Shown: piece by piece, positions 2,653-41,197 of the stretch
How positions within the stretch are numbered: the first letter of the stretch is position 1
Layout: every line of letters begins with the position of its first letter
Source of the DNA: a virus
Reading direction: 5' to 3' (one strand)
Virus record (IMG/VR): IMGVR_UViG_3300045988_144682
DNA length: 64,000 nucleotides
The notes under the pieces: model-generated
What the model was told of the DNA's origin: nothing
What the model saw: the letters and a program-made list of their open reading frames with translations, nothing else
Database searches by the model: none
Position numbers and translations under genes: made by a program

Positions 2653-3585
2653 TTAATTAACGAAGAAGAGCGGGCGAACACCAAAAGAATGAGAGGCGTA
2701 GCTGTCGTCCGCATCACCGTCGCTGTTCACATCAGCGAAGGCAGTCGCACTCCCCACACCACGAAGCCAATAGTTGAAGCGACGGTGAATGTATTCTGGT
2801 GCTAATGCAAACAATGGAAGCTGAGAGTTGATACATCCAACTTCATAGCCACTATCAGCCCATACTTTAGTTCCATATACCATTACTTCTGACATCAGTT
2901 CAACTTTGCAGTCATACCACGCCCAACCCGAAGATTGTCCGTCAGCAGTAGCATTCGGTAAAATATCTCTGTATGATATAACATGAGAAGATCCAAAATC
3001 ATTTACAATTTTCTGAGTAGCTTGTGCAAGGTTAGATGTTCTCATATCTGAGTTTGCATATGCACCAGTTGTATTATTTGCTGTGCTTCCAGATTCATAC
3101 TGTCCGCTATCTGTATTATGCATTTGTGCGTTATATAAAGCAGAATCAGGAACAAGGCACATATTATTACCAATTGACACATTATCACCACAGTTTTTAA
3201 TAATGTTAAAACCAGCAATTCGGTAAACAGTACCATTGATCGTCAGATAATCTCCAACATATAAATCATCAAAAGTTCCATCTTGAATAGCTTTTGACAT
3301 AGCTGAAGTATAAGAAGTCCCAAGATTCTTGCCTCTAAAAATAGAGTTGTGACCAGCAGCACTGTTTCTTACAGAACTTTTATAAAGTTCATTGACAGCC
3401 GTTGGTAACGTTTTTGTACCTTGATCGAGTCCATAAGTTTTTGAAGATAATTTGTTTAAAATTGTTGTTGCGAGATTCGCCAAAGTGATACCTTTAGTTC
3501 CGTTTGCGCCATCGACAGCAATGACATCAGAATCGGAAGGAGTGGTAACACTAGAAAGATCTTTTATTCGAGTCGTATTTGCCAT
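2653..3585 (-). CDS. DGR target: tail fibre / receptor-binding protein with C-terminal variable region
   Basis: 310-aa ORF with GGAGG RBS and a phage-fibre-like N-terminus. The last 38 codons (YWLRGVGSATAFADVNSDGDADDSYASHSFGVRPLFFVN) are the VR copy of TR. Confidence 0.85.
   Translation of the reverse strand: MANTTRIKDLSSVTTPSDSDVIAVDGANGTKGITLANLATTILNKLSSKTYGLDQGTKTLPTAVNELYKSSVRNSAAGHNSIFRGKNLGTSYTSAMSKAIQDGTFDDLYVGDYLTINGTVYRIAGFNIIKNCGDNVSIGNNMCLVPDSALYNAQMHNTDSGQYESGSTANNTTGAYANSDMRTSNLAQATQKIVNDFGSSHVISYRDILPNATADGQSSGWAWYDCKVELMSEVMVYGTKVWADSGYEVGCINSQLPLFALAPEYIHRRFNYWLRGVGSATAFADVNSDGDADDSYASHSFGVRPLFFVN
2671..2783 (-). repeat. DGR variable repeat (VR)
   Basis: Counterpart of TR 1779-1891 with 14 adenine-specific substitutions. 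Ends 16 nt before the stop codon. Confidence 0.9.
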
Positions 3586-3603
3586 AGTATATTTCCTCCA
3601 TTT

Positions 3604-5520
3604 TTATATACCAAGTATCTTTTCGATATTTTTTAAGCGTTCATCATACGCTTGCAATTTCATCTCATCGTAAAGCAATCTGACAATTAAAAAATGAGTA
3701 TACTCAATACAGTAATACTCATCTTCATCATCAGGATTAAGTTTTCTTGTATCTAACATAAGTAACTTATCGGCTACTCCATGTTTTTGAAATGATCGTT
3801 GTAGATCTTGTGCCAAAATACCGACATAAAGTACCTCATGGTCATAATCTGGTGCAGACATTCTAAATTGTTTGAACGGCACTTCTCCTACTGCGTCTAT
3901 GATATTTTGTACAATTGGTTCAATATCACGTTTCATTCTTCTATCTGAAAGTGAACCACTCCATGTTCCATCAAGAAATCCCTTTCCATTTTCTGCTTTG
4001 ATATGTATACCATCAGAATTTGCGTAGATACGCCCACGTTTTCCTTGAGTTCCATTATTATTATAGTACCAATCAGACCATCCATATCCACCGGGTGTAT
4101 TTTCATTCATTAGATTTACACCTTTAAAAATACGCATCAGCATAGCACAATCAAAACCAGAGCGATTAGCGGTTTTTCCAAACGCAATACCATCACCACC
4201 AGCTTTATAATCCATAGTTGCGAAGCCGTTTGATAATGTCATTGTGGCTGTGGCTTCACGACCTGCTTTATCTCGAATGACAATTCTGATATCGTATGCT
4301 TCAGTGTCCGAAACAGCGATAACACGAATATCATTAAGAGATAAGGAACTTGTACTGATATCTAGGTTTGTCCAAGCGGATTGCCCTGCAATTCTGTATT
4401 GTAGGACAGGAGTGAGCGTGTTGCCGGATATACTGCTTACAGAACCTTTGGCAACGATTTTAGCATGATCTCCAGTATCGTCTGATACGAAATTACTGGT
4501 AGTTGTTCCAGTACCACGAGATGCTGTGATAGAAGCGGATGGGAGACTATAATCAACTACCGTAACATCTAATGCAACAAATGCAGAACGACCTCTACTA
4601 TCGGTAGCAGATACTTTGACAACTTTTGTTCCTGTCTTTGTAAACGCATCGAATGTATATTCCGTTCCGCTTGATGCTGTTTTATCTGACATATCAGTAA
4701 CGGATATCTTCAGTGTTTTTATGGATGACCCGTACACACCAGAAGCAGTAGGTTTTACCTTAACTCCAGAAAGCAACTTCGCATAACATCCAAACGTATT
4801 ATTCGTATTGGAAAGCGATGCAATATTGCATGTAGGAACTACGGATGCCGGGAGATAAGCAGTAACTGACACAGTTTTCGTACCAATCTTTGTGCTTCCA
4901 TTCATCGTATCAACAGTGAATGTTAATGTTCCGCTTGTCGCATTCGGTATCTGACCAGCATATTTTGCTATCGTAAATCCATTCCATACGACATTATCCA
5001 CACAAGAGTTCGTTACTACTTCTGACTTATTTCCGAATGTAGCTGTTACCTTATGTGTAAAGTTCGCTTTCTTGTTCATATGTATGGTTATTTGATCGCC
5101 AATGTTTACCGAAGATACGCTTGAAGGCCAGTTGTTTACAGAGGGCTGCGATGCTCTTGGTATGGTGTCAAGAGACCAGCTACCACTTCCGTTTCCAGTA
5201 CCATCTGCGTAATAGTAAATAGCACTAGAAATACTTGCTGAAAAAGATTGCGTACCATTACTGTTATGACTAACAGTAACAGATCCACTACACAGCTTTC
5301 CTTTATATTGTTTCCATCGACCAGTGTTGTTATAAACTATGTTCCCGGCAACAACTACCTTACATGGTCCAGTCATATACCATCCAGCACTACCTCCTAT
5401 AGCTTCGACAGTATAAGAGATTGTAGATGTATTTGCGCCAACATTTTGTGAAGCAGTCCAGCTGAATTTCCAGCATCTTCCTTCGTATCCACTGGTCGTA
5501 AAACTTCCGCTTAAAGCCAT
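3604..5520 (-). CDS. tail fibre with C-terminal S74 intramolecular-chaperone (autoproteolytic) domain
   Basis: 638-aa ORF with GGAGG RBS. C-terminus carries LSDRRMKRDIEPI...ILAQDLQ, typical of the peptidase S74 chaperone. N-terminus resembles siphovirus DUF859-type tail proteins. Confidence 0.8.
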   Translation of the reverse strand: MALSGSFTTSGYEGRCWKFSWTASQNVGANTSTISYTVEAIGGSAGWYMTGPCKVVVAGNIVYNNTGRWKQYKGKLCSGSVTVSHNSNGTQSFSASISSAIYYYADGTGNGSGSWSLDTIPRASQPSVNNWPSSVSSVNIGDQITIHMNKKANFTHKVTATFGNKSEVVTNSCVDNVVWNGFTIAKYAGQIPNATSGTLTFTVDTMNGSTKIGTKTVSVTAYLPASVVPTCNIASLSNTNNTFGCYAKLLSGVKVKPTASGVYGSSIKTLKISVTDMSDKTASSGTEYTFDAFTKTGTKVVKVSATDSRGRSAFVALDVTVVDYSLPSASITASRGTGTTTSNFVSDDTGDHAKIVAKGSVSSISGNTLTPVLQYRIAGQSAWTNLDISTSSLSLNDIRVIAVSDTEAYDIRIVIRDKAGREATATMTLSNGFATMDYKAGGDGIAFGKTANRSGFDCAMLMRIFKGVNLMNENTPGGYGWSDWYYNNNGTQGKRGRIYANSDGIHIKAENGKGFLDGTWSGSLSDRRMKRDIEPIVQNIIDAVGEVPFKQFRMSAPDYDHEVLYVGILAQDLQRSFQKHGVADKLLMLDTRKLNPDDEDEYYCIEYTHFLIVRLLYDEMKLQAYDERLKNIEKILGI

Positions 5521-5541
5521 ACAATACCACCTCCTTTATGG

Positions 5542-8500
5542 CTAAGAATTTATTGCCCCCCCCAAGTACCTAAATGACAGGTTGCCATTTGAACGTGGGA
5601 TAAAAGCAAATTTTCCAAGTTGCAATCTATCTAAGATTTCAGCATCCGTTACATACAGCTTATTGTTACTGAAATAAGCAACTTCATCTGTTCCTTGGTA
5701 GAAACTTAACTTTTGCTCGCTCAACAGCATTGATAACTGCATAGACGGATCTTGGCTAGAAATCTTTCTTGTAATACGCAGTCCGGCATCTTCCATAGAG
5801 AAACATTCAGTCGTTTGCTCTATACTTTCAACTCTTCCGTTTATGGCATCAACACGAACAATGTATGTATTGACATCAGTTTGTACCTTATCAACTTGTT
5901 GTTGTGTCGTGACATTACTTTTCCGGATTTCTTCTATACGCCCATCTTCGCCGACCAAATCATCAAAGTCTTTTCTATTTGAAACAACATCATTGATTAC
6001 ATCAGAGATAATCTTCTTCAATTCGTCAGACATATCACCAGTAATCTTATCTGCGTAATCTGTTAAATCCTCTGGAGCAGGGTAGTAGTCTGTAGGACGG
6101 TTTCCTTTTTCCAACTGGATATAATCAATTGCATAATAGTCATTACTGTTCATGTTATCTGTAATTCTAAGCACATTTGATGTCACCCCAACATTGCCAG
6201 TAGAAATCAACTGACCTGAAGATGTAACAAACATGTCACGATTGTCAGATACAATATCAAACTCTGTATCTTCTAAAGTCAGGACGGTGTAAACCTTGTT
6301 CCATCCAGATGTAAGCTGTATCTGTTGCATATCAGTTGTCTGCATTACACCATTCGTATTTGCAAGGCAAACATTGAGTGTCATATTTTGACGAGAATAT
6401 ACATTCATTGATACCGTCAGTTTCGTTCCAAGTTCCGTAGCAACCAAATTGTCCGTATATACTTCGTAGTACACAGCCTTGGCAGCATTTGAGCCAGTTC
6501 CAGGCTGTACCTTGATTACACGCTTTGCATCAATTTCAGCTTCAGAAATAGAATATACTTTGTCAGTTCCATAATAATGACAACCTTCAAGCTGGTTCGA
6601 TTTCTTCAACAGGTTTCTTGCTCCGATAAGCATGTTTGAACTATCAACTAAGATAGGAACTGTCTGAATATCAAGTAGATTATCTTCAGTTGGAATTTGA
6701 TTAGCTTTGTGCATTTCTATAGTGTAAAAAGCTGGCATGTTAGCCTCACCATAAATAGTAAATATTTGTTCGGAAATATTATTTGATGAACTTATAATTT
6801 CTTCTGTACGATTATCACTATAAGTTTTTGATATAATAAAACGGCATGGGTAAACAACTCGATCACCATCCCCATCTCTATAATATCCTTTTGCTTTTAT
6901 CGTATCTGGTGTGATAATATTATTTCCGTCAATTTTTACAGCACTTGTATCAAGTTCTAAGAAATAAGTTCTTCCGGCATCACCAACATCACCTTGTTTT
7001 GCATTAGTATATGAGACAGTAGAGTTGCCATCTGAATATTGAACGGTTGTTCTTGTCCAAAGGTACATGCCATCTACTAAATCAGGGATTTCATCTGACC
7101 ATTTATTCGTTACGAATAAATTAGAAGAATTATCAATCAATGATTTTCCATCATTTGTAACAAGCTCAACTGATTCTGGAGGAACAGAAGAATTTTCTGT
7201 TGTGGTGATATATTCTACTTTAGTAGAAGTGATAGTAACATCATCACCCTTGATTTTTGACCAAGTGTAATCTGTGGGATTTTTACTATCTGTCTCAATA
7301 TTGTCAGTATATTGTCCGATATATTTTTTATTTGTTCCATTAACTGTATCAAAACCAGTTTTACCGTCAGAGGAATCGGCATAAGCTATATGAATATATC
7401 CGTTTTCACCAGGAACGCCATTTTCACCTACATATTTAGACCACTTATATTCGCTTGATTTTGTTGGTGCGATTGAAGTGGTAGTTGATGCTATACCAAC
7501 ATATTTTGTCGTTGATGATGGAGTTGCAGTCATTCCAGTACCATTTGCATCAGTAGCATAACGTACCCAAAGGTAAGAAGATGTACCATCGAAATAATCT
7601 ACACCCTTAATAGGTGTCTTTCCGTCCGTTCCTTTAATTAAAGTCCACGTATATTTTGTCGAATCATCACTATCGGCTTCAATATTATCGGTATATTGAC
7701 CAATGTATTTTTTACCCATTCCAACTGTTTTACTAAATCCAGTTTTGCCATCGGCAGAGTCAGCATAAGCAATATGAACATATCCATTCTTTCCAGGAGT
7801 TCCGTTTTCGCCTACATATTTCGACCATTTATAATTGCTTATTGTAGTTGGCGCAGTGTTTGTTGTGGTAGTCGCAGTACCTATATATTTTGTATCTGCA
7901 CTTGGAGTCGTAGTCATACCACTTCCATCAGAATTAGCGGAGTAACGAATCCATAAATATGAAGATGTACCGTCAAAATAGTCAACACCTTTTACTGGTG
8001 TTTTACCATCATCACCCTTGATTTTTGACCAAGTGTAATCCTTATAATTTCCACTGTCTGCTTGTGTATTGTCGGAATATACTCCAATATAAATTGCACC
8101 AGTAAATTCGGATTTAGAGAATCCTTCCTTACCATCAGCACTCATGGCGTAAGCAAAATGGACATAACCATTTTTACCTGGAATACCATCTTCACCATCT
8201 TTACCAGCGAACTTAGACCATACATAAGAATTTGCAGAGTCAGGATCTTTTATTACATCGTTGACACAAATACCTATATAATCAGAAGGAATTTCTGAAA
8301 TTTGGTCATCTGTAGGATTTGGATAAGCAGAATATTTTATATGGACATAATTACTTGAACCATCTCTACCATCACGTCCATTGATACCGTCTTTACCGTC
8401 AGTTCCATCAATACCTTGTCTCGATACACTGTATGTGACGGTCGAATTTCCGTCTGAATAATTTACAGTAGTTCTCGTCCAAAGATAAGAACCTTCAATT

Positions 8501-13605: not shown

Positions 13606-16600
13606 TTACCACTTATATTTATTTTTGGCTAATGTGCTTTTACCAGCAACAACACCAATCGTCATAGCTTGAATCATATCTTCAAACTTTTCATCCTTTT
13701 TTGCACGATTCATAAATTCCTCATAGTTTGTTACATTTGGCAGATTAAATGTAACTTCACCTATGCTGTTATTATTTACACGCATATAAGGTTCAAGACC
13801 AGAAAGAATACCATTATTAAACAAGTTCCCACTAATAAATCCAGACGGATCGCTTGCCATATCCCATATGTTTCGTGTGGCATCGGCGGTAAGCACACTG
13901 TCACCTTTTGCGATATGAGTTACAATAGCGTTCTCAGATGGCTTGACAATAGATTCACTACCAAGCTCATTTACCCACGCATTTTCAGCTTTCGGAGCAT
14001 TTTTCAGACCGACAGCATATTTATTGTAATGATATGGTGAAAGATCACGGATTCCCTGGTATCTACCAACCCACGCACCAGAACGTACATAACCTTCTCT
14101 GCCCATCTGATTTACGATACTTTGAACTCTATTGGCATCAAAACCTTTAGCTTGCAAACGGCTAACTCTGGTATTTCCAGTTCCCCAACCATAGTTACCG
14201 TTCCAAATAGCAAGAGCAACACCATAGTAATCCTTATCGGTTCGTGCCGGTTTTAATGGTGTAGAAGGAGTATTGTTTGACGGTTTTGAAGGTTGACTTG
14301 CTGGTTTACTTGCTTCCGTCTGTTTCTTTGTGGCTTCCGCTTTAGCTTTCGCCTCTGCATCTGCCTTTGCAATCAAAGCATCAGTATAAGCCTTAATACC
14401 AAGAATCGCATTCAATGTAGAAGTATTCTGTGTTAAGAACTGATCGCCATATTTAGAAATAACAGTGAAAGCACCACCATCATTCGTCCAGATAGAATTC
14501 ATGGTTTCTGACAATGTATAGCCAACATTTGCACATTCTTGTTGAATTGTATCGCTAATAGAAGATGAATTTGCATTGATTGAATCAATCATGTCAGATA
14601 AAAAAGCATCAACGTTATCCAATCTTGCATTAAGAGATAACTCATATTCATTATACAAATCATCTAATAATTTTTTCTGGTCTGTGATGTATCTGTCATA
14701 CTCTGTTTCTTGCAATTCTTCCATAGCTTTTGATAAATCAACCTGAATTTTCTGAATTGTAGCTTTAGTTTCCTCTGAATTATCTCCGGCATAAGCTGAT
14801 AACTGTTTCTGCAAAGAAGCAATTTCATCAGATTGTTCTTTTACCTTTTTCTGATAATCATAGAGGTCTTTTGCACTATCCAATGAATCTGTATAAGCAT
14901 CTATCAAATCTTTGAGAGAATCAAGCTGCGCTTCAATTCCGTCTTTTACCAAATCAATCATAGCCTGTTTTTCATCTTCGGCAGCAAGAATAGATTTTCT
15001 CTGTAATTCGAGAAGTTCCTGTCTACGTTCAATGAGGTCAGTGTTATATGGATCTTTAGCAATTTCCGCATTTAACTCTTTGATAGCTTTGGCATATTGG
15101 TCAGCTTGTGCCATATCGACATTGTAATTCTGTCCATGTAATCCCATAGTTGCCATGCCGGTATCTGTCATTTGACCTTTATCATCAAATAACTTTCCAT
15201 TTGCCATTAAGTCAATGAGAAAATCTGCTTCATCGGTAATATTTGATATACGGTCTTCCATATAATCAAAATATTCCCAATCAAGCTCACGCATTGTTTT
15301 CTGATATTCAAGCAGCGAGAGATTAGATTCATCAATTGCCTCTTTGACATCATTGATGCTTTTCTGCATCTCATACCATTGCTCAGAACCCTTTTCGATT
15401 TCACCAGAAGCCATTGCCTGATTGAAAGATTCCGTTAAATCAACTAATTCTTTTTGGAGAATTGCCTGATTTTCTTTTTCAGCTTTTTGGAGAGCTTGAT
15501 AATAAACCTTGCTTCCTTTTAAGCCTTTTGCTTCCAGTGTATCAAGCCCAGTGTTATATGTATCAGTCAAATGTTGTACAAGAGCTAACTGGTTATCAAA
15601 ATCAGTGGAAATGTTACTGAATCTGTCAGCATATAACTGGGCGATTTCTTCATGCAAATCGGCTACAGCGTCTTTTGCTTCAATCGCTTTTTCATAAAAG
15701 TCTTGAAAATCCTTAATCTTATCAGACAAGTCTTCATCAGTAATCGTGGATATATCAATCGTGCCATTCTTTACCTTGTCCATCCAGTCAGATGATAAAC
15801 CGACAGAATTAGCCTGTTGCATATATCTGGTGTATGCTTGATTCTGAGTATTGATTTGCTGAGTGATTAAAGAGATTTCATCGGCAGCAGTACTATTACG
15901 TTTTACCAACGTTTTGAATGCACTTTCTGCTTTTACTTTTACTCTGTCAATCGCTTCACTGATTCGATTTATGGCAATTTCAATCCAGTCAAATGTTTCT
16001 TCAAAATCTTTTTCTGTTGAAGAACTGCTTGAACTAGAACTTGATTTACTAGAAGAAGATGATCTTCCACTAGAACCGCTTGATTTTCCAGAAGACTTAC
16101 TACTTGATTTTCCAGAAGACTTACTACTTGATTTTGATGAAGAACCGCCACTTGTAGAAGGAAACCTCCAACCACTAGCATAAGCAGTACCACCAAGATA
16201 AGAACGTCCCCTAGAGTTAATCTTGCCACTTGATAAAAGTTGGCGTGATTGCTCTGCATCGAATACAATAGAACCTTCTGGAATATGGGCAAATTCAGCA
16301 CCACGATCTCCGACAGTCCACCATTGATTACCATTGACAACAATTTCTTGTCCTTTTTCACCGGTTAAAGCATCTTCAGATACTTTTGTCTTCCAACTGT
16401 CTTTAAGCCAACTTGTATCAAACAATGTTCCAGAAGCTCTTGCCGTACCACCATAACGAGCAGTACCAAGTAATTTACCCTTTCCAGTAGAAGAATATGT
16501 ATCTATATGATGCGTATAGATATACATATTTGAGGTTTTGCCATTTACACCATTCAAAGCAGAAGCAGCACTACTAGCAACAGAAGTTGCATTTTCTGTA

Positions 16601-19340
16601 GCTGTAATATTTGCCTTTGGTGATAATTTCGGTTGCAAAGAATTTAAAGCATTGTCTACAGTCTGGATTTCGCCAGTTGCAGTATCAGTAATGGAAATTT
16701 CACCATTCAAATATGCTTCTTTTTGTTCTGGTGTAAGAGAATTCCAAGTATTGATAACCCATGTTGCTTGATCTTCGGCAGACAATGATGCAAATTTTGG
16801 ATTTGCACTTGCATCATTCCATAACTGAATCAACTGAGTTGCATAATCTTCTGAGTATAAAGCACAAGTTTTAGAAATTAACTCACGTTTATTAACATCC
16901 TCGATTACAGGTGTTGCTTGATCTTCCGCAAGAATATTAAATGTGAGTGTATTATCTTCACCTTGTAAAACCTCTATTTTTTTCTGAACACCATCAATTT
17001 CGGCGGTATAAGTAATCGTACCGTCTTGATTTTTAAGAGCCTTTACTTCATCCTCAATGCCATCGCCATCAACGTCAGCATTAAATGTAATAGAACTTCC
17101 AGAAGCAAGTTGCTCAAGTTGTGATTGAATTTCATCAGTTGAAAGTTCCGCATTAACATGAAGCTCTTGAGGTTTGCTAAAGAAATCTTCCCATGCACTT
17201 TGTACTTCTTCTATAGAACTGTCAGTATTGATTTCTGGGTGAGTTTCAGAAAAAGCATTGAGTATGGATTTTTGTAATTCTTGAGTATTCTGGATTTTCG
17301 CTTGAATCTCAATAAATTTATTACTACCATATTCCTCTTTTGAAAGCTGGTCGTATAAGTCATTGATTGTATTTTCATTGACTTTTATCTTAGCTTGTAC
17401 TTCTGCAGAAACATTATCAACTTGTAAACCTTGTTTGGCAGTAGTGAGATATTTTTGATTGGCAGCCAATACCTCTGCATTCGTATCTGCATTTTTACCA
17501 CCTTGTCCAGATTGTTTTGCTGTCAGTTCATCAATCTGAGCCTGAATAGTAGAAAGGTCATATACAAATTCGATATGTACAATCTGGTCTTCCGTGAGTT
17601 CTGTCATATCATCTTGATATTTTTGATACTCGTCATCCCAGTTTTCAATAAGACTTCCAAGATGTTTTTTAAGCTGTCCGTCTTCCATATCTTTGTAAAC
17701 AGAATGAATTCCATCAAGTGCAGTCTTATATCTGTTTAATCCTTCAGCACTGAATACAACATCGTCAAATTCAGCACCATAAGATTCAAGACTATGCATA
17801 AGAGACTCAGTAGCCTCAACACTAATTCCAAGTTCTTTAGCAGCAGCAGCACTATTCTTGAATTTCTTTGTCCAAGAAAATTCGCCATTATCTTTTGTGG
17901 CAAATCCGCTCTTAACCAAATCATCGGCAAAATTAGTTACACTCTGAAGTGGGTTATCACTATCAAAGTATCGTTTTATTTTCTGCTGTGCTTTCTCCCA
18001 ATATTCAACATAAGCATCAGCATCATATTTATAATCATCTGGATTTATTTTTCCATATGTCATAAATTGGGCAGCAGTTTGGAAATCATCTGTGCCAACT
18101 TTGCCTTTCTTGTAAAGCTCTTGTGCTTTACTCAAAGCATCTGCCATATCAGTCCAATCTTGATCCTTATTTTTAGAATCCATTGCAGCTTTTACGCCAG
18201 CGATAGAACCATCTACACCAATAATTGCTTCTGAAGCTTCATCGGCACTTGCAGCTAAATCATTGAAATACTTCGCAATATCGGAAGCGTCCACACCATC
18301 AATGGCAATTCCCATACGCTTAATATCATCCGCTGTAAGTTCTGCCTGTTTTGCAGCTTCAAGGAGATTATCTTTAATGAAGTTTTTGCCGGTACTTCCA
18401 TCAAAGAAAGAATTGATTTTATTTAATTTCTTCTCTGCTTCTGATAAATCAACATTATTGTAAGCATCAAATAAATCATTTATACGATTTACAGTGTCTT
18501 CATATCCTGGAAGTACACTACCGTCTGTAGAGAAAAGAGAAGAGTAGTTTGAGTTAATTGTCTCAACATCTTCACTAACTTCTTTTTCCAAGTCACTAAC
18601 ATCTGATTTGAGATTTTTAAGCTGCTTTGTCTTCTGCTCATACTCAGTATCAGCTTGCCAGAAATGCTTATGATATTCCGGCTCCATGTTAGCAATTTCT
18701 TCTTCAAGTTTTACTTGCTCTGCTTTCTTCTCATTAAGTTTTTCTTGTTTAGATGTAGCACGATCAATGATATCACCAGACATATATTCCATGATTGGCA
18801 TACCATTGGTATCAGTCATCATATATCCATTTTTATCTTTAAGGAAATCGCCAGTTTGCCATGTTAAATCTTTCGTCAAAACATGGTTCGCATCTTCGGC
18901 AGCTACACCTTGTTGATAATTAGCAAGTTTCTGTTTGATTGCTAACTGTCTTTCAAGCTGGTCGTTTTCAGCCTGTAACTTTTGTAATTCAGCCTCTTCG
19001 GTTATGGTAAGAGAATCCATAGAGTTTAACTCATTGATTCTGTCCTTTACCTCTGAAAGCCGAGACTCTAAAGATTCTACTTCACTTGCTGTCTGTTCAT
19101 AAGCACTACGAGACTTATCGGCTTTTTCTACGGCTTCATCAAATGATTCTGTGACAAGATCGACTATGGCAACAACAGCAACGATGCCAGCAGCAATAGC
19201 AAGAAAGCCACCTAAAGCAGCAGTAGATATACCTATCGCACTAGCAAGACCTTCAAAACCTAATGATGCTGCAGCAGCAACATCACCTAAAGAAGTTAAG
19301 CCACCAGCAGCGGACATAGCACCAATAAGATCTTTTATCG
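13606..19340 (-). CDS. tape measure protein, exon 2 (C-terminal ~1911 aa)
   Basis: Long ORF without its own RBS. It continues the Gly/Ala hydrophobic segment of exon 1, then long coiled coils, a Ser/Lys low-complexity run and a CW_7-like motif (IWNGNYGWGTGNTRVSRLQAKGFDANRVQSIVNQM). The exon boundary is inferred. Confidence 0.7.
16081..16135 (-). repeat. 24-nt perfect tandem repeat in Ser/Lys-rich tract of TMP
   Basis: TGATTTTCCAGAAGACTTACTACT occurs twice (16081-16104, 16105-16128), followed by a 7-nt partial copy. Encodes the SSKSSGKS repeats. Confidence 0.85.
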
Positions 19341-19347
19341 CCAATAA

Positions 19348-19374
19348 TAATCTTGCAAATAATAATAGTAATAA
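19348..19374. repeat. left arm of 27-bp inverted repeat
   Basis: Reverse complement of 19962-19988 with one mismatch, including 19 consecutive perfect bp (19348-19366 / 19970-19988). Confidence 0.9.
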
Positions 19375-19385
19375 ACAGATTTTTG

Positions 19386-19394
19386 TGATATAAT
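19386..19394 (+). promoter_or_regulatory. extended -10 promoter (TGATATAAT) for the intron-embedded plus-strand gene
   Basis: TGnTATAAT lies 33 nt upstream of ATG 19427. AAGGAG RBS sits 7 nt before the ATG. The -35 is weak. Confidence 0.5.
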
Positions 19395-19426
19395 TATAAA
19401 TAATATCAAACAATAAGGAGAAAAAT

Positions 19427-19960
19427 ATGGCACTTATTAAATGTCCTGAGTGCGGAAAAGAAATTTCCGACAAATCAAAACATTGCATTCATTGTGGATA
19501 TCCACTTGATGAATTAAAAATAAATAATACCAACCAACTCTACAAAATTGTATTAACAGATCATGGCAAAAACAAAGTTCAAACAATTGCCAAAATCCGT
19601 GAATTTACCGGCATGGGATTAGCCGAAGCAAAGAAATTTTCTGAATCTTTACCACAAGTAATTCAATCTGGTATCAACATGGATGAATGTAATTTGATAC
19701 AGTCACACTTTTTATCAGTCGGTGCAACCGTAGAAATTCAGCCAGATAATGAATCTGTTTCAAAAAACACAGTTTTAGAGAATAAACCAATAGCAAAAGC
19801 TATAGTTAAAGACAAAAATGTAATTACTTGTCCGAAATGTGGATCTACTGCTATCGTAACCACAAATAGAGGATTCTCTATAATGACTGGATTTATTGGC
19901 TCTGGCAGTCCACGTAATGTATGTCAAAATTGTGGATTCAAATGGAAACCAAGAGCATAA
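19427..19960 (+). CDS. zinc-ribbon / ribosomal protein L7-L12 C-terminal-domain-like / zinc-ribbon protein
   Basis: 177 aa. N-terminal CPECG..CIHCG. Central region YKIVLTDHGKNKVQTIAKIREFTGMGLAEAKKFSESLPQVIQSGINMDECNLIQSHFLSVGATVEIQ aligns along its length with the E. coli L7/L12 CTD. C-terminal CPKCG..CQNCG. Confidence 0.8.
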   Translation: MALIKCPECGKEISDKSKHCIHCGYPLDELKINNTNQLYKIVLTDHGKNKVQTIAKIREFTGMGLAEAKKFSESLPQVIQSGINMDECNLIQSHFLSVGATVEIQPDNESVSKNTVLENKPIAKAIVKDKNVITCPKCGSTAIVTTNRGFSIMTGFIGSGSPRNVCQNCGFKWKPRA

Positions 19961-19961
19961 A

Positions 19962-19988
19962 TTATTACCATTATTATTTGCAAGATTA
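19962..19988. repeat. right arm of 27-bp inverted repeat
   Basis: Pairs with 19348-19374. Starts 2 nt after the stop of the 177-aa gene. Confidence 0.9.
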
Positions 19989-20047
19989 GATATGCTACTT
20001 CGTGTATTGGACTACAATGACAGTTTGGTTACTGACGAGCATATCAA

Positions 20048-20075
20048 CATGACTATGATATAATCATGTTTTATC
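20048..20075 (+). terminator. probable intrinsic terminator of the plus-strand gene (same hairpin as intron P9)
   Basis: CATGACTAT-GAT-ATAATCATG (9-bp stem) followed by TTTTAT on the plus strand. Confidence 0.45.
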
Positions 20076-20383
20076 CGACTGTCTATCACACTTGCCTATG
20101 GCAAGCGAACTCCCTTACAGTCTGTGAACCTTCCCGTTTATCACAAATTCCAACGTGATACAAACCTATAAAATAGGAGAGGGGATTGGATGCTGACTAT
20201 CCATTGTCCTATACAGTATACTTAGCATTATTTTTTAGCATATATACATTTTGACGTATAGTGTAAATTCAAACTTTTTTCTGCATTTCTGCGACTATCA
20301 CGCCTATCCGTTAGGATTACGTTGTAGCGTTGAATTGTTAGGATTTCCCAGCAGTTTGAAAGTTTATGCATCTATGGACTCGC

Positions 20384-22541
20384 ACCCATAGAGGGCAAAT
20401 TCTTTACCAAAATTTTTAATTAGTGCTACGATTCCAACACCAGCACCTATTGTTCCCAAAGTACCAATGTGGTCGATTACTGTAGTAATTGCTTCCGCAA
20501 TTTCTGTCAGACCAGAAACTACGCCTTTTACGAAACCAGAATCTAAGAAAGAATTTGAAAGTCCTTCCCATGCAGCTTTGAGCTGATTTACTCTTGCTTC
20601 GATAGAATCCATGTATTTTTCGTGTTCTTGCATTGCAGAACCTTCAGAATTCATGGATACATCAAGGGCTTGTCTTGCAATATCAAAGTTCTCCATAAGA
20701 GATGCCATTACATTACCTTGATGTTTTCCGGCAAGCAATTCAGTAATACTTGCCTGTTGAATATCCGTTAAGTCTTTCCATTTCTGAGATAACTCGTCCA
20801 TGATTTGATATGTAGACTTAAAGGTATTTTTATCAAGCATAATATCTACACCTGATAATGCTTTTATTTCTGCTTGAAGTTTAGCGGTAGATTCTGCCAT
20901 ACCATCTGTTTCTAAACCAGCTTCTTCAAGCTCAGTTGTTGCGCCACGTATACGCATTGAGATCGTCTTAAACGCATTACCGACTCTTGGAGCATCCTGA
21001 ACTACTGTATTAGCAGCAGTAATTAACGCTATGGTTTCATCAAGAGTATTATTTGCAGCAGCCATTGAAGATGCGGATCTTGTTAAGGCATCACCAATAC
21101 CGCCGGAACTGATAGCAAATCTGTTACCTACTTCATTGAATTTATCAACAATAGAAATAGCATCATTGGCTTGTATACCGAATGCTTGCATTGTTGAAAT
21201 TACACTGGAACTTGCTTCATCAATGCCAGAAATTTCGTCACCAACAACACTATAGATATTGGCAACTTCTGAAAGCTGTGTAGCGTCAGCCATTGAGTAA
21301 CCAAGTCGTGCAAAGTTAGCTGTTGAATTTACATAGTCGGTAATAGTCGTGCCAAGTTCTACAGAACGCTTTGAAGCATTTGTAAGAAAGCTAGAATAAG
21401 CGGAGTCCGTTTCATCTGTAACTTTCTTCAATTCTGTCATGGCACTATCAATATTTACTACATTTGAATACATATCTTTCAATCCACGAATGGCGGTGTT
21501 AATCATAGCCCCCATACCAAACAAAGGACTAAGACTTGTCATATTGTCTTTTAATGTAGCAAATACGCCCTTGCCGAGACTTCCAGACGCAGCAGCAGTA
21601 GTTTTTAATTCTGTAAATTGTCTATTTACATCTTTAAGTGCGCTACCAGTAGTGGCATTAGCCAAAGCTGTTTGTATATCTTTCAGTTCATTCTTGTACT
21701 TTCTAGCAGCTATCGTATTTTTGTTCATCCAGGTTTCAATTTGATTACCCAAAACTGTTCTCTGAGATAACAATTGCTGTGATGCTGCAAGAGAATCATT
21801 TTCTGCCTTTGCTTCTTTATAAGCAAGTTTAAGTTTTCCAACTTCTTGTGTTATTCTGTCAAATTCAGCTTGTTGTTTATCTAGTCCAGATATATTACCA
21901 ATACCAGCTAATTCAGATTTTAATTTTGACAGTTCTGCAGAATAACTATTTGTATCACCTTTCAGCTTTACAAACCCAGCATTAAGTGATGCAATATCGG
22001 AGTTTAATTTTGACACATCCGCACCAGTAAACATCTGCCTAAAAGATTCACGTACTCTGGAAGACGTATTTATCAAATCACCAGTTTGTGCGCTGAATGA
22101 TTGCATAGCTGTTACTGCACGACCTAAATCATCCACACCAGTTACAGTAACATTTAAGCGATCACCGTTTAATTCGTGACTTATGCCAGTTACAGTAACT
22201 TTTAAATTATCCAATTCCTTTGTAATATTGGATATGGAACTTTTATTAAAACCAAAATTCTGCAATGAATTTTGTAGATTTTTTATTTCTGTTTTCGTTC
22301 TACTTAAATCAATACTGTTTAAAGACGCATTAGCATTTCTGGCGAAATTATTGCCAGCAACATTACCAGCCTGACCAAATTGTGATTTTATCTGATTCAA
22401 ATAGCCGTTTATATTTCCATTTTTGGACACCAAATTTACATCAACATCAATTTTGTGCTTTGCATTTGTGAAAGCATTCATTTGTTGCTGTGCCTTGGCG
22501 GTATCAAGCTCCGCTATAACGTGAGCAATAAAATCTGACAT
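20384..22541 (-). CDS. tape measure protein, exon 1 (TP901-type core)
   Basis: GGAGG RBS. Contains the TP901-family TMP core (…LGYSMADATQLSEVANIYSVVGDE…NRFAISSGGIGDAL…). The genomic ORF runs on to a TAA at 20364, inside the proposed intron. Confidence 0.8.
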
Positions 22542-23010: not shown

Positions 23011-24045
23011 TTATAGATCACTTAAAGACGAACTCTTACCTTCCACAATTCCATCTTTTGTGAAATACTTACTGAATTCTTCGGAAACCTCACTATCGTT
23101 GTAGAGATTAACCATGTCCGAACTACTCCATCCGAAAAATTCCTGAACAACATTTGCCGGGATATTCAGCTTCAATAATTTTGTGTTGAGATAATGTCTC
23201 ATGCAGTGCCAGTAAAAATCCACACCTAATTCATTTGAGAAGATGTTCGCCCAACTATCAAGAGTACTGACTTTCATTTGTGCATAAGAACCATCACCAC
23301 ATCTATGTACAAAAAGCCATTCGCTCTCAATGCCTTGTTTCTTACGTTGTTCCATCCATAAATCAAGGTATTTCTTAAACTCATAAAGCACATATTTATT
23401 GAGCTGTTTACCTGTTTTACCAGCTCCCTTAGTTTTGATCTTAGGAGTCTTATATAAACCACCATAAACAATATTGTTCTCATCGAAGTATTCAACTTTG
23501 AATCTCAACAATTCTGATTTTCTAGCACCACTCATTGCAGCCAAAGCAAAAGCACATGCCTGTTGGTATCGTTCTTCACTAACCAATTTATCTAAGAATT
23601 TATCTACGTCATCATCTGGGATAATGGTTTTCTCACGAACAGCTTCGTTCTTCGGGGATTCAATCTTTCCAATAATGGATCGGAAATTCTCAAAATCTTC
23701 GTCTTCGTCCTGTAAAATATTTTCAATATAATTTGACATGCTACTGATAGCAGATTTTACCCTACGAATTCTTTTCGGACTCCAACCCCATTCATTGATT
23801 GCATATCCCTGGAATCGTGCAAGCTCACGTTTCTTGATATCAACAAAAAATTTATTGTTGTTGTACTCTAAGTTCCAGCAGAAGAAAATTTCTAGGTCGT
23901 TTCTGTACCCGTTAATTGTAGAAGGGGCACGATCAATAGACGCAAGATATTCAAGAAAATCTTCACAAAGTTGTTTATTGTTTGGATTGATTTTCTTGAT
24001 AGATTCTTCGTTTGTAATTTTGTTATAAATTGTTGTTCTACCCAT
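23011..24045 (-). CDS. tyrosine recombinase (phage integrase / XerC-D family)
   Basis: 344 aa. SAM-like N-domain (INGYRNDLEIFF). Catalytic ARKSEL (R), HCMRHY (HxxR), GWSS and LY (Tyr). Confidence 0.85.
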   Translation of the reverse strand: MGRTTIYNKITNEESIKKINPNNKQLCEDFLEYLASIDRAPSTINGYRNDLEIFFCWNLEYNNNKFFVDIKKRELARFQGYAINEWGWSPKRIRRVKSAISSMSNYIENILQDEDEDFENFRSIIGKIESPKNEAVREKTIIPDDDVDKFLDKLVSEERYQQACAFALAAMSGARKSELLRFKVEYFDENNIVYGGLYKTPKIKTKGAGKTGKQLNKYVLYEFKKYLDLWMEQRKKQGIESEWLFVHRCGDGSYAQMKVSTLDSWANIFSNELGVDFYWHCMRHYLNTKLLKLNIPANVVQEFFGWSSSDMVNLYNDSEVSEEFSKYFTKDGIVEGKSSSLSDL

Positions 24046-37766: not shown

Positions 37767-37850
37767 TAGGAGATGTGGGACTCGAACCCACACGCCAATA
37801 ACGGCACTGCGCCCTTAACGCAGCGTGTCTACCAATTCCACCAATCTCCC
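37767..37850 (-). tRNA. tRNA-Leu, anticodon reads AAG in a standard 7-nt loop
   Basis: Cloverleaf with a Leu-type D arm (GGAATTGGTAGAC), long variable arm and T loop GGTTCGAGTCC. Anticodon stem CTGCG/CGCAG, loop TTAAGGG. G1.U72. Confidence 0.8.
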
Positions 37851-37893
37851 ATATAAAAAAGCATGGGAAGTTTCCAACCCATGCTATAAAAGA

Positions 37894-39336
37894 TTACAAC
37901 GAAATTTTCATTCCTTTATTTGAACATAAGACTCTGAAAGTCTTATTATTTTTAGAAATTTCTTTTCTTAAACTTTCAGATAATGACTTTTTGCTTTCTT
38001 CGCTACCATGAACCAAGATAAGTTTGTTTGTATTCAAAGAACTACCGAACTTAATCAAGTCATCTCTATTGGCATGGCTACTGAAAGTAGAGAGCGATAT
38101 ACAGTCAGTCCTATTTACAACCGGCACTTTATTGATTGTCAGTTTCTTGTAGTCTTTATAGTTCTTGATTCGATAGGAGAGATATGAAGGATTATCGCCA
38201 ACATATCCAGAGAATACAACCATACTGTTTGGATCGGGCAAGAACTTTTGTAAATAGTTTACAATCCTACCATTTGTACAAAATCCAGAGGATGACAATA
38301 CAATCTTCGGAGTAGTATCATTCTGGCACATTTTGGATTCTTCTTTCTCAGATAAAAAAACAACATTTTTCCAATTTCGCACTTTCATCCATAATTCCAG
38401 GTCTTCGCCTTTAAGTATGGTTTCATATAAGTCAGAAATTTCACAGCTAAGTTTTGAATCAACAACTACATCAGCTTTAAATGAATCGTCACAACCAAAA
38501 ATCAAATAGAGAACAGTAAGTAATTCTTGTGTCCGACTAAAACTGAAACATGGCAGCAGAAGAGTACCTTTTCGCTCCAATACAGTATTGACAGCTACTC
38601 TCAAATGCTCAACGTCAAAATCCCTGGTTTTCTTATTTACTTTTTCTCTACTTCCATATGTACTTTCCATAATGGCAACATCATTGAACATTGCCGGAAT
38701 TTCAGTATTTCTTACATAATGATTTTTCGTATTCAAAGCACCAAGATCAGATGTATACAGAATTTTCTTTGTCTTCAATCCATCTGACAAAATCAATTGT
38801 AATTGAGCAGCACCTACACAATGAGAGTTTGGAATCCACTGAAAACTAACTACATCGTCAAGTTGGAAAACAACACCATATTCACTATAAGGTTTAATTA
38901 ACTGCAATGTTTTAGAAACATCATCTTCACTATAAATAGGAGAGTAATTTCTGCTGTAGCGTTTTGAAAGAATTCTTGCTTCATCAGCTACAATAAAAGC
39001 ACAATTAAAAAGCAGCGATTTCATAACCGCTGCAGTGTTAGGTGTAGTTATAATTTTTCCATTGAATCCCTGGGCAACCAATCGAGGAATTAAGCCACAA
39101 TGATCCACATGTGGATGTGCCACAAACAAGTAATCAATCTCACTTGGTTTGAATCCAAATTTCTTTGAATTGATTTTATAGGAATCAAGATAACTATTGC
39201 TTTTGGATTGATATAATCCGCATTCCAGTAATATCTTTTTGCCTCCAAATTGTACAAGGTACTGAGAGCCGGTGACATCTGTTGATGATTCACCTAAGAA
39301 ATAAATTCCATCATTATTTTGTTTGTGTTTAGACAT
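37894..39336 (-). CDS. beta-CASP metallo-beta-lactamase-fold nuclease (RNase J/CPSF-like)
   Basis: 480 aa with an AAAGGTGG RBS. HPHVDH (HxHxDH) motif and a beta-CASP-sized C-terminal half. Embedded between tRNA genes. Confidence 0.7.
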   Translation of the reverse strand: MSKHKQNNDGIYFLGESSTDVTGSQYLVQFGGKKILLECGLYQSKSNSYLDSYKINSKKFGFKPSEIDYLFVAHPHVDHCGLIPRLVAQGFNGKIITTPNTAAVMKSLLFNCAFIVADEARILSKRYSRNYSPIYSEDDVSKTLQLIKPYSEYGVVFQLDDVVSFQWIPNSHCVGAAQLQLILSDGLKTKKILYTSDLGALNTKNHYVRNTEIPAMFNDVAIMESTYGSREKVNKKTRDFDVEHLRVAVNTVLERKGTLLLPCFSFSRTQELLTVLYLIFGCDDSFKADVVVDSKLSCEISDLYETILKGEDLELWMKVRNWKNVVFLSEKEESKMCQNDTTPKIVLSSSGFCTNGRIVNYLQKFLPDPNSMVVFSGYVGDNPSYLSYRIKNYKDYKKLTINKVPVVNRTDCISLSTFSSHANRDDLIKFGSSLNTNKLILVHGSEESKKSLSESLRKEISKNNKTFRVLCSNKGMKISL

Positions 39337-39368
39337 ATAATTCCACCTTTATTATTATTTGTTTATAG

Positions 39369-39448
39369 TAGTAGATACGAGACTCGAACTCGTAAGGTTT
39401 CCCGGCAGTGTTTGAGACTGCTGCGTTTGCCTGTTTCGCCAATCTACC
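39369..39448 (-). tRNA. tRNA-Leu(CAA)
   Basis: Anticodon arm GCAGT-CTCAAAC-ACTGC, long variable arm, T arm ACGAG-TTCGAGT-CTCGT. Confidence 0.8.
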
Positions 39449-39535
39449 ACAATATATAAACAAAGCTACTTGATAAGTGTCAGATAGCTTCGGAATAATT
39501 TATGATTTACACTATTTGATAGTGGTAATTTTTAA

Positions 39536-39618
39536 TGTGGATGATGGGACTTGAACCCATACACCATTAAGATAGCAGAGCTTAAATCTGCTGCGTCTGC
39601 CAATTACGCCACATCCAC
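39536..39618 (-). tRNA. tRNA-Leu(TAA)
   Basis: Perfect acceptor GTGGATG/CATCCAC. Anticodon arm GCAGA-TTTAAGC-TCTGC. Long variable arm. Confidence 0.9.
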
Positions 39619-39696
39619 ATGATATATTGTAGAATTATAGTCTAATTGAAAATGTAATGTTCCATATAATATAATCATTGCATCACACTCTCAATA

Positions 39697-39769
39697 AGCT
39701 GGTAAAGGGACTCGAACCCTTAACCTACTGATTACAGGTCAGTTGCGCTACCAATTGCGCCATACCAGC
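39697..39769 (-). tRNA. tRNA-Thr(TGT), with C at position 33
   Basis: Acceptor GCTGGTA/TACCAGC. Anticodon arm ACTGA-CCTGTAA-TCAGT. T loop TTCGAGT. Confidence 0.85.
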
Positions 39770-40014
39770 AGATGTGTTCAATGAGGTTTACCTAGTGCGC
39801 CCTCTGACAGACAATGAACTGTGCCATCCCCACGTGTATAAATAGTTATAGATTATCCTGGTGACTATTTCGGATACATACATGGTTTCAACCTTAACAC
39901 CAGTTTCGATAAAACATCTACCCATCTATTATTGATATCTGATAATAAATAGACATAGCGTAATATCTAGCGCACTAAAAACCTTCATCCATCGCTTTAA
40001 ACTTTGTGCGTTTC

Positions 40015-40039
40015 AATTGTATTTTGCTTTGTTACAATT
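40015..40039 (-). ncRNA. small hairpin with ACAAAGCAAAA loop (mini version of the array stem-loop motif)
   Basis: Minus strand reads AATTGTA-ACAAAGCAAAA-TACAATT (7-bp stem). Confidence 0.35.
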
Positions 40040-40091
40040 CAAGTTTATTGTTATTTATCTTCAAAGCTAAGACTTTCACATCCACGGTAAA

Positions 40092-40163
40092 CTGGGGTAG
40101 CTGGATTCGAACCAGCGAATACAGGAGTCAAAGTCCTGTGCCTTACCGCTTGGCGATACCCCA
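40092..40163 (-). tRNA. tRNA-Gln(TTG)
   Basis: TGGGGTATCGCCAAGCGGTAAGGCA body. Anticodon arm CAGGA-CTTTGAC-TCCTG. Confidence 0.9.
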
Positions 40164-40170
40164 TTATAAA

Positions 40171-40242
40171 CTGCCCCGGTGGGGATCGAACCCACAACAT
40201 ACAGATTAACAGTCTGCCGTTCTACCATTGGACTACAGGGCA
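40171..40242 (-). tRNA. tRNA-Asn(GTT)
   Basis: Anticodon arm GCAGA-CTGTTAA-TCTGT. T arm GTGGG-TTCGATC-CCCAC. Confidence 0.85.
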
Positions 40243-40309
40243 TTAAAAACTGATAATGACTATGCCAAAATCAGATTTCCTATCTACACATGGTAGATGG
40301 ATAAAAGAC

Positions 40310-40432
40310 AAGTCGCTAAGATCGAAGAAAATCTGATGATAGACAATACACTGAAGATTGTCTGGTCAGATTTTTATGTAAATATTTGCATTACTTACCC
40401 AATTTTTCGTTATAATTTGCTGTATGCGACTT
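40310..40432 (-). ncRNA. array stem-loop module A
   Basis: 7-bp closing stem AAGTCGC / GCGACTT. Loop starts ATACAGCAAATT. Confidence 0.55.
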
Positions 40433-40436
40433 TCAC

Positions 40437-40550
40437 TAGGCTCTAAATGTAAACTATTTCATTCATCAAAAATACTTAGTGTTTGAGGGGAAAATATAAA
40501 ATATTCTTTAATATGTTTTGTTAGTTGTTCATATTTGCTGTGTGAGCCTA
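40437..40550 (-). ncRNA. array stem-loop module B
   Basis: 7-bp closing stem TAGGCTC / GAGCCTA. Loop starts (A)CACAGCAAATA. Confidence 0.55.
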
Positions 40551-40553
40551 TAC

Positions 40554-40706
40554 TAGACACTTTGACAGAGGATATCATTATCTTCTGTTGATTTACAATA
40601 GGATATTAAGGGGAGGAATAATATCCTATGCTTTTTCATATAATTTTCATTTGCTTGTAAAAATAATTTGAAAGAATTAAATCAAAAATTTTGCTGTATG
40701 TGTCTA
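40554..40706 (-). ncRNA. array stem-loop module C
   Basis: 7-bp closing stem TAGACAC / GTGTCTA. Loop starts ATACAGCAAAAT. Begins 2 nt after the tRNA-Ile 3' end. Confidence 0.55.
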
Positions 40707-40708
40707 AA

Positions 40709-40779
40709 TTGGAATAATAAGAATCGAACTTATGTGACCTCCGTATCAGAGAGGCATTCTACCATTGAATTATATTCCA
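40709..40779 (-). tRNA. tRNA-Ile(GAT)
   Basis: Acceptor TGGAATA/TATTCCA. Anticodon loop CTGATAC. T arm ATAAG-TTCGATT-CTTAT. Confidence 0.85.
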
Positions 40780-40791
40780 GTATAATATGAG

Positions 40792-40883
40792 CGGTAAGGG
40801 TGGGCTACGACCCCACGGTACATGACTTAACATGTACGCTAGATTAGCAATCTAGTGCATTAAACCAACTCTGCCACCTTACC
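40792..40883 (-). tRNA. tRNA-Ser(GCT)
   Basis: Acceptor GGTAAGG/CCTTACC. Anticodon arm CTAGA-TTGCTAA-TCTAG. Long variable arm. Unusual T loop GTCGTAG. Confidence 0.8.
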
Positions 40884-40887
40884 ATGA

Positions 40888-40958
40888 TGGGTGTAGTGAG
40901 GCTTGAACTCACGACTTACCGGTTAAAAGCCGGTTACTCTACCAACTGAGTTACACCC
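40888..40958 (-). tRNA. tRNA-Lys(TTT)
   Basis: Anticodon arm ACCGG-CTTTTAA-CCGGT. T arm GTGAG-TTCAAGC-CTCAC. The acceptor-to-D connector looks 1 nt short. Confidence 0.75.
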
Positions 40959-41023
40959 AGATTAAATAATGTACCTATAATATTACATGCCAACCAATCG
41001 CCAAATTGATTATAACTGTAAAA

Positions 41024-41116
41024 CGAAGAGGGTGGGATTTGAACCCACGAACCGCCATCACTGACGGTTGCCAGTTTTCAAGACTGGTGCAATAATCCAG
41101 ACTCTGCCACCTCTCC
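41024..41116 (-). tRNA. tRNA-Ser(TGA)
   Basis: Anticodon arm CCAGT-CTTGAAA-ACTGG. Long variable arm. T arm GTGGG-TTCAAAT-CCCAC. Confidence 0.85.
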
Positions 41117-41125
41117 AAAAATAAA

Positions 41126-41197
41126 CACCCATACTTGGAATCGAACCAAGATCATAGCTTTAGAAGAACCATGTTCTCTCCATTGAACTATACGGGC
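41126..41197 (-). tRNA. tRNA-Arg(TCT)
   Basis: Anticodon loop CTTCTAA. T arm CTTGG-TTCGATT-CCAAG. G1.U72. Confidence 0.8.

Follow-up and report, generated by a model that had tools for sequence, protein, structure and literature searches.

A group I intron with an antisense zinc-ribbon gene probably splits a phage tape-measure gene

Results and Discussion

We analyzed a 64,000-nucleotide stretch of viral DNA, IMG/VR virus record IMGVR_UViG_3300045988_144682, which is called the window throughout. Its tape-measure protein (TMP) gene is very probably split by a 1064-nucleotide (nt) group I intron on the minus strand (20405-19342), and the gene looped out of intron helix P9.2 appears to be an accessory passenger, not a homing endonuclease gene. 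Judged by the base changes among its relatives, the element is a genuine group I ribozyme family under selection; splicing itself we infer. An initial annotation of the window had proposed that a group I intron of about 1 kb divides the TMP gene. That proposal is supported by a covariance model, by covariation and by uninterrupted homologues, with splice sites that are revised here.

A group I ribozyme within the tape-measure gene

The TMP open reading frame (ORF) occupies 22541..20364 on the minus strand (725 codons) and contains a PhageMin_Tail match (PF10145, 1.5e-23 in Pfam). The ORF listing bears out the stop first reported at 20364 (TAA at 20366-20364). The TMP ORF is followed on this strand by another long one, which spans 19488 to 13606. 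Its first 50 or so codons had been described as antisense to a plus-strand gene; only about 21 of them (19488-19427) face coding sequence, and the part from there to 19341 is antisense to the upstream region of that gene. The gene is predicted to be organized as follows.

20406..22541, minus strand: TMP exon 1, 712 codons ending ...ALIKNFG, last codon GGU at 20408-20406; placed by the ORF and PF10145, its end by P1
19342..20405, minus strand: group I intron, 1064 nt, 5' site U20406|A20405 and 3' site G19342|G19341; placed by RF00028 and covariation over 48 pairs
13606..19341, minus strand: TMP exon 2, 1911 codons and a stop, starting GCG AUA AAA (AIK...); CW_7 repeat near the C-terminus

With permissive filters, the Rfam group I intron model (RF00028, Intron_gpI) aligns over its full length (model positions 1-253) to 20415-20055 on the minus strand. 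This cmsearch had been suggested as a check on the initial annotation; the alignment is full-length, with E-values of 3.4e-7 in a 1.3-kb search and 1.7e-5 over the whole window, but its 35.9 bits lie under the gathering score of 50. Because of that shortfall, a default Rfam scan of the window returns 19 transfer RNAs (tRNAs) only and no group I intron. Inserts in P5 and P6, about 200 nt together, lower the score.

Covariation was assessed in ten intron copies from four lineages: the window with its relatives L001, L002 and L024; L028; L031; and L020, L030, L033 and L036. A core structure comprising P2, P3, P4, P5, P5b, P6, P7 (as a pseudoknot), the outer pairs of P8 and P9, and P9.1 was written on a MAFFT alignment, A1. 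Across 48 pairs and ten copies, 98.5% of the 480 cells are paired, a figure somewhat flattered by the derivation of the structure from the window sequence; compensatory changes on both sides occur in 31 of the 48 pairs, a count that is not flattered in this way. None of 500 shuffles reached the observed values, and 29-39% of cells were paired when, as a control, the 3' partners were offset by 1-3 columns. The P3-P8 core, including the P3/P7 pseudoknot, is kept by base-pair covariation in the ten copies. Compensatory changes across lineages in intact core helices argue for selection on the RNA. The elements of the intron are listed from its 5' end.

20394..20408, minus strand: P1, exon GGU (20408-20406) and AAA (20405-20403) with UUUGCC (20399-20394), loop GAA
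20371..20392, minus strand: P2, 9 base pairs (bp), UCUAUGGGU/GCGA/GUCCAUAGA with GNRA loop GCGA; 8 of 9 pairs compensatory; aligned to P2 by Rfam
20363-20358 (ACUUUC) with 20114-20109 (GGGAGU), minus strand: P3, 5 of 6 pairs compensatory
20353-48 with 20196-91, minus strand: P4, from the core structure alignment
20344-41 with 20202-199, minus strand: P5, 4 of 4 pairs compensatory (P5b, 3 of 3)
20191..20353, minus strand: region of P4/P5 enclosing the P5 extension of about 140 nt, with a covarying GAAA-capped hairpin at 20292-20283
20129..20189, minus strand: P6, CC (20189-88) with GG (20130-29), branched into hairpins P6a-c
20124-19 (C-A-GACU) with 20080-76 (AGUCG), minus strand: P7, bulged A; outer pair C-G becomes G-C in the L020 group
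20107-20089, minus strand: P8 hairpin, outer pairs covary
20075-20071 (GAUAA) with 19347-19343 (UUAUU), minus strand: P9.0, covaries and precedes omega-G
20070-20046, minus strand: P9, outer pairs from the core structure alignment
20045-38 with 19996-89, minus strand: P9.1, 6 of 8 pairs compensatory
19988-19962 with 19374-19348, minus strand: P9.2, 27-bp stem with arms 96% complementary, closing the 587-nt cargo loop 19961-19375
19342, minus strand: omega-G, conserved, directly after the 3' strand of P9.0

All of the motifs recognized in the initial annotation are in place: the GCGA hairpin, GTTCACAGACT (20129-20119), the P8 hairpin and GATAGACAGTCGG (20087-20075). The 27-nt inverted repeat that it read as P9.2 is likewise present, as is the GG following that stem (19342-19341). 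Its P1, the hairpin at 20392-20371, exists but is P2 according to the Rfam alignment and to its covariation as a plain helix. The G-binding site of P7, a G-C pair beside a bulged nucleotide, is found, and the four inner P7 pairs are invariant in 10/10 copies. Since only GUAA (20118-20115) lies between the 5' strand of P7 and P3', the intron lacks P7.1/P7.2 and falls outside subgroup IA. The helices beyond P7 abut without spacers. P6 entered the covariation count with its two closing pairs (CC/GG) only, and P6a-c were compared by eye, several of them registering poorly in the automatic alignment. In the P5 extension, the GAAA-capped hairpin is followed by an A-rich stretch, AGAAAAAA (20282-20275), that is invariant in alignment A1; together they presumably correspond in appearance to P5abc of IC1 introns.

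A probable antisense passenger gene in P9.2

The P9.2 loop of the window (19961-19375) holds a single 177-amino-acid (aa) gene, which lies antisense to the TMP gene.

19427..19960, plus strand: cargo gene (177 aa), in which a C-terminal domain of ribosomal L7/L12 lies between two zinc ribbons
19386..19429, plus strand: putative cargo expression signals, an extended -10-like box TGATATAAT at 19386-19394 and a ribosome-binding site (RBS) AAGGAG before the ATG at 19427, read from the sequence

The protein matches PF00542 (2.4e-17) and PF13240 (2.7e-09) in Pfam and phrog_2546, a family of unknown function, in PHROGs. At the place equivalent to the -10-like box of the window, L002 has TGATAGAAT. 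A simple sigma-70 two-hexamer scan found no promoter in the upstream region of the cargo gene, and for this reason the promoter is best described as a candidate. The antisense orientation suggests that the gene could be switched on while the late operon is silent.

Pfam detected no nuclease domain in the cargo protein, NCBIfam gave no match and PADLOC no defence-system match; LAGLIDADG, GIY-YIG, HNH, His-Cys box, PD-(D/E)xK and EDxHD nuclease domains are absent from the protein. Nuclease domains are equally absent from the cargo ORFs tested in L002, L003, L028, L030 and L032. Pfam domains cover residues 4-28, 40-105 and, more weakly, about 126-171; they fill most of the protein, and the unassigned stretches are thus too short to hold a nuclease domain. 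The family is large in Clostridia (2825 matches), is often labelled "ribosomal protein L7/L12" and occurs mostly outside introns. A 91%-identical free-standing copy sits beside a helix-turn-helix repressor and a resolvase, the L013 copy is also free-standing, and so is p19 of Clostridioides phage phiC2, a relative located just upstream of the phiC2 TMP gene. From these sequence features, the cargo gene is read as a passenger and not as a homing endonuclease.

Antisense genes that share a C-terminal zinc ribbon (CPxCGS...CxxCGxKW) occur in the intervening sequence of the TMP gene in almost all interrupted relatives. Their N-terminal and middle parts differ between relatives.

L002 5007-5543, minus strand: antisense zinc-ribbon gene
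L003 4976-5536, minus strand: antisense zinc-ribbon gene
L008 about 5087: antisense zinc-ribbon gene
L020 7819-8268, minus strand: antisense zinc-ribbon gene
L025 6398-6877, minus strand: antisense zinc-ribbon gene
L028 3306-4171, minus strand: antisense zinc-ribbon gene
L030 6301-6768, minus strand: antisense zinc-ribbon gene

Such cargo is also present in relatives without an RNA recognized by Rfam (L003-7, L008, L025). The P9.2 cargo of L028 is about 3 kb long (L028 1300-4260) and includes a sense-strand DUF3800 gene; its apparent zinc-ribbon/L12 gene is split into overlapping ORFs, 3707-4171 and 3306-3722. We tentatively suggest, at somewhat less than even confidence, that in this group of SPbeta-like gut phages the P9.2 slot takes promoter-bearing accessory genes antisense to the late operon, repeatedly from a family with a variable middle between two zinc ribbons, and that these may act as a host-manipulation or exclusion factor expressed in lysogeny or early infection. 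Cargo would be tolerated inside an essential gene because splicing would remove it.

An intimate tie between the gene and the intron, with the protein as a new homing or DNA-targeting factor or as a splicing cofactor, is unlikely. The recurrence of the same antisense C-terminal zinc ribbon in several lineages (the window, L002, L003-7, L008, L020, L025, L028 and L030) would suit such a role, as would the lack of a recognizable homing endonuclease in any of these introns. Set against this are the missing nuclease domain, the shortage of unassigned sequence to hold one, and the many relatives outside introns, including the three free-standing copies named above. In addition, L026 carries an unrelated lipoprotein-like ORF in place of the zinc-ribbon gene and L031 carries no cargo. 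The zinc-ribbon family as a new intron-associated mobility protein is the less likely interpretation, and the passenger reading is retained. In a limited search of the literature, no account of antisense cargo other than an endonuclease gene turned up for a phage group I intron. What stands out in this system is the recurrent antisense zinc-ribbon cargo; the intron is ordinary for phage biology.

Predicted splice sites and spliced product

The predicted 5' splice site is defined by P1 (GGU|AAA-GAA-UUUGCC), with the splice-site wobble U20406·G20396. The pattern GGU|A...UGCC is invariant in four lineages although the upstream exons differ, and P1 consists across lineages of G-C, G-C and U·G pairs plus 1-3 intron pairs. 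At the 3' end, UUAUU (19347-19343) pairs with GAUAA (20075-20071), directly 3' of P7, to form P9.0. This helix covaries (AAUAA/UUAUU, GGGUU/AAUUC, AAUCU/AGAUU, GAAU/AUUU) and always has a G at its end, so that the conserved G19342 immediately follows a covarying helix of 4-5 bp. L002 has the same intron before a different exon 2: it is identical to the window through ...GAUUAUUAUUG, where it continues with A and the window with G. The omega-G proposed initially, 19341, is therefore not conserved; G19342 is.

The revised sites give phase-0 joins without stop codons in every lineage. In L031, where an ORF-less intron of 423 nt occupies a different TMP site, the same rules give ...AGRAFRG|ILMNLQ..., and the spliced protein aligns without a gap across the junction to the uninterrupted PF10145 region of the window (...VGNAFKTISMRI...). 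For the window, the predicted ligated RNA is ...AAUUUUGGU joined to GCGAUAAAAG. It would encode a TMP of 2623 aa reading ...GVGIVALIKNFG|AIKDLIGAMSAAGG..., that is ...LIKNFG|AIKDLIG.... The unspliced frame reads through P1 and P2 for 13 codons past the 5' splice site (KEFALYGCESIDA) to a stop in J2/3, and its product is predicted to carry the C-terminal peptide EFALYGCESIDA. Two other 5' sites were tried and rejected: U20410 (guide GAAUUU) leaves no in-frame G-terminated 3' site outside the P9.2 stem, and at U20409 P1 cannot form.

The sites originally proposed, U20384|G20383 and G19341|C19340, would take the GCGA hairpin as P1 and yield a junction ...KEFALYG|SIKDL... in a TMP of about 2630 aa; the initial annotation had itself marked these junctions as provisional. 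Joining U20384 to C19340 does remove 1043 nt and leave an open frame of 2630 codons without stops, with ligated RNA ...CUAUGGGU joined to CGAUAAAAG. The window has the required U·G pair (20384·20379), and the heptapeptide that these sites add is not absurd, since TMPs of the L020 group have seven extra residues (EASGVLG) after KNKG. The comparison with relatives nevertheless makes these sites quite improbable. With A at 19341 and the same 5' sequence, L002 would be left with no in-frame G-terminated 3' site. The closing U·G is U-A in L024, C-G in L031 and G-C or G·U in the L020 group, the hairpin covaries as the plain helix that Rfam aligns to P2, and P9.0 ends one base earlier. A splice-site wobble that directly closes a tetraloop is, moreover, atypical of a group I P1. 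The junction is best corrected to ...KNFG|AIKDL....

Several points weigh against a spliced intron with the sites preferred here. The Rfam score stays under the threshold of the family. Exon recognition looks weak, given three exon base pairs only in P1 and at most one pair in P10. Since the residues that follow KNFG vary, protein alignment alone cannot discriminate between the two junction models: the homologue comparison suggested as a check confirms that uninterrupted TMPs span the site but does not fix the exact junction. Finally, pattern and protein searches found no intron-less allele of this exact TMP. Neither ligated junction, initial or revised, is present in viral contigs by exact-pattern search; a 160-aa junction-spanning peptide gave half-length matches only in a protein search, with no close intron-less allele; and megablast of the region against GenBank phages gave no match. 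The 21 metagenome matches to the revised junction were discarded as chance, being HU/IHF genes (motif IKNFGTFK) or other non-TMP sequence.

Production of the TMP as two polypeptides (725 aa and about 1900 aa), with the RNA element a decayed relic, is likewise quite improbable. It would fit the sub-threshold Rfam score and the database record, in which nearly all close relatives are called as ORFs of roughly 700-800 aa that end at this site; the protein-database entries seen comprise more than 100 clusters of 670-845 aa. A relic is hard to reconcile with core helices that are all intact and carry compensatory changes across lineages, or with a phase-0 junction kept in every lineage. Exon 2 has neither a start codon nor an RBS at this conserved boundary. 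Continuous one-ORF homologues also exist: TMPs with 56-67% identity (L009, L010-12, L013, L014) are uninterrupted across the site, and those of the distant phages Sundance, Tsamsa and phi3T align over it.

A reading of the inverted repeat and ORF as a separate mobile element bounded by terminal inverted repeats, and not as an intron helix with its loop, is barely credible despite a perfect-looking 27-nt repeat that brackets the ORF exactly: no transposase is present, the stem keeps its pairing through G-C to A-U and G·U changes in L002 and L024, a short hairpin takes this position between P9.1 and P9.0 in the ORF-less L031, and L028, L020 and L030 have other closing stems there, around unrelated genes that amount to 3.0-3.3 kb. 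We read P9.2 as a native peripheral hairpin whose loop has come to serve as a cargo slot.

On this basis, a mechanism can be proposed. In the late transcript, the ribozyme core would fold from P1 to P9. P1 (GGU|AAA...UUUGCC) would present U20406·G20396, and an external guanosine would attack after U20406. P9.0 (GAUAA/UUAUU) would then bring omega-G19342 into the G-binding site of P7, and ligation of the exons in phase 0 would give one TMP of 2623 aa (...ALIKNFG-AIKDLIGAMSAAGG...). The P9.2 loop would serve as the cargo slot, with the 177-aa gene on the opposite strand under its own RBS and -10-like box; the suggested timing and purpose of its expression are our reading.

Related introns and interrupted genes

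The same intron is present in L001, L002 and L024, whose TMPs are 87-99% identical to that of the window. A diverged version occupies that site in L028, within a TMP of 49% identity, and a further group of copies comprises L020, L030, L033, L035 and L036. The TMP gene of L020 contains a second group I intron further upstream (3255-3579, plus strand), which scores 73.9 bits, above the gathering score, and has an IA-like look with an insert of about 60 nt between P7 and P3'.

Other relatives have TMP genes interrupted by 1-1.6 kb: L003-L007 (about 4530-6120), L008, L015-L018, L025 (about 6110-7230) and L026 (about 6370-7210). All of these interruptions lie at or beside the same KN[LVF]x site. 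In the intervening sequences of L003, L008, L016, L017, L019, L025 and L026, no group I match was obtained with Rfam; what those of L003 and L008 have in common with the window intron is confined to the P5-extension motif (nhmmer E 0.002-0.007). The intervening sequences of L003-L007, L008, L015-L018, L025 and L026 are probably other intron subtypes.

A sister intron subfamily was found in L040, L041, L044, L046, L049-L052, L054, L056 and L057, contigs assigned to Lachnospiraceae, Hungatella, Clostridium and, oddly, one Bacteroides metagenome-assembled genome. L041 at least has the same P1/P2 module (GGU|AGAUC...GAUUUUGCC CUUUAUGGAGGUGACUCCAUA) with a different core. Genome matches to the core pattern are mostly from Lachnospiraceae; matches in L029, L034, L037 and several genome contigs were discarded as chance coding matches.

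Comparison with known introns

Group I introns have been described in the TMP genes of Bacillus cereus-group prophages, where TMP-IVS1, -IVS2 and -IVS3 belong to subgroups IA1/IA2 (Tourasse and Kolsto 2008, PMC2504315). Those introns occupy three insertion sites, have P1 helices adapted to the different sites and in many cases lack a complete homing endonuclease gene (PMC2504315). The resemblance to the present case lies in a group I intron inserted at several sites in siphophage or prophage TMP genes. The window intron differs in lacking P7.1/P7.2 (4 nt from P7 to P3'), in its large P5 extension and in its host phages, which here are SPbeta-like and probably associated with gut Clostridia; an antisense non-endonuclease gene was not reported for the B. 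cereus-group introns (PMC2504315). While TMP introns have been known since 2008, a different structural lineage and host phage group are found here.

In its core, the intron resembles the Tetrahymena type (IC1), with near-identical P7/J8-7 boxes (GUUCACAGACU; GAUAGACAGUCGG), a bulged A in P7 and a GNRA loop on P2. It differs by residing in a bacterial virus between protein-coding exons, by its branched P6 and by the gene in P9.2. In the T4 td/I-TevI, SPbeta bnrdE/yosQ and SPO1 pol/I-HmuI systems, the intron ORF lies in sense orientation, and its product is a GIY-YIG, HNH or LAGLIDADG nuclease. The window intron, like those of td, bnrdE and pol, interrupts an essential phage gene and loops an ORF out of a peripheral helix, but its ORF is antisense and has no nuclease domain. 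IStrons are fusions of a group I intron with IS200/IS605 transposase genes in Clostridioides and Bacillus. They share with the window a 5'-terminal ribozyme, a 3' part that holds non-endonuclease genes, and occurrence in Firmicutes, whereas in the window a closed P9.2 helix surrounds the cargo, and P9.0 and omega-G come after this helix. Pfam found no transposase domain in the window or its relatives.

Other features of the window

The genes flanking the TMP gene match the SPbeta families YomU_Tube and YomN. The phage is an SPbeta-like siphophage whose host is probably among the gut Clostridia. Two genes upstream of the TMP gene, a XerC/D-like tyrosine recombinase gene (23011-24045, minus strand; PF00589, 1.8e-17) stands amid tail genes, an odd position for an integrase, with a 142-aa ORF (22984-22556) in between; the recombinase is in the same position in L024, L025 and L026. 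Within exon 2, at about 15000-15150 on the minus strand, the middle of the TMP contains a long Ser/Lys-rich low-complexity run (SSSKSSSKSSGKSSSKSSGKSSGSSGRSSSSSKSSSSSSSSS). The 19 tRNA genes are clustered on the minus strand at 37767-42441, where a weak sub-threshold match resembling tRNA-Sec lies at 41534-41616.

Significance

In every database entry that was seen, the TMP of this widespread phage group is annotated as two ORFs. A corrected single TMP of 2623 aa would alter tail-length estimates and protein-family alignments. The intron adds a non-IA lineage to the known TMP introns, and the data set assembled here covers four lineages, with cargo from zero to more than 3 kb, and three target sites, each located after a GGU codon for glycine. 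The recurrent zinc-ribbon cargo provides a lead on how accessory genes may travel inside phage introns.

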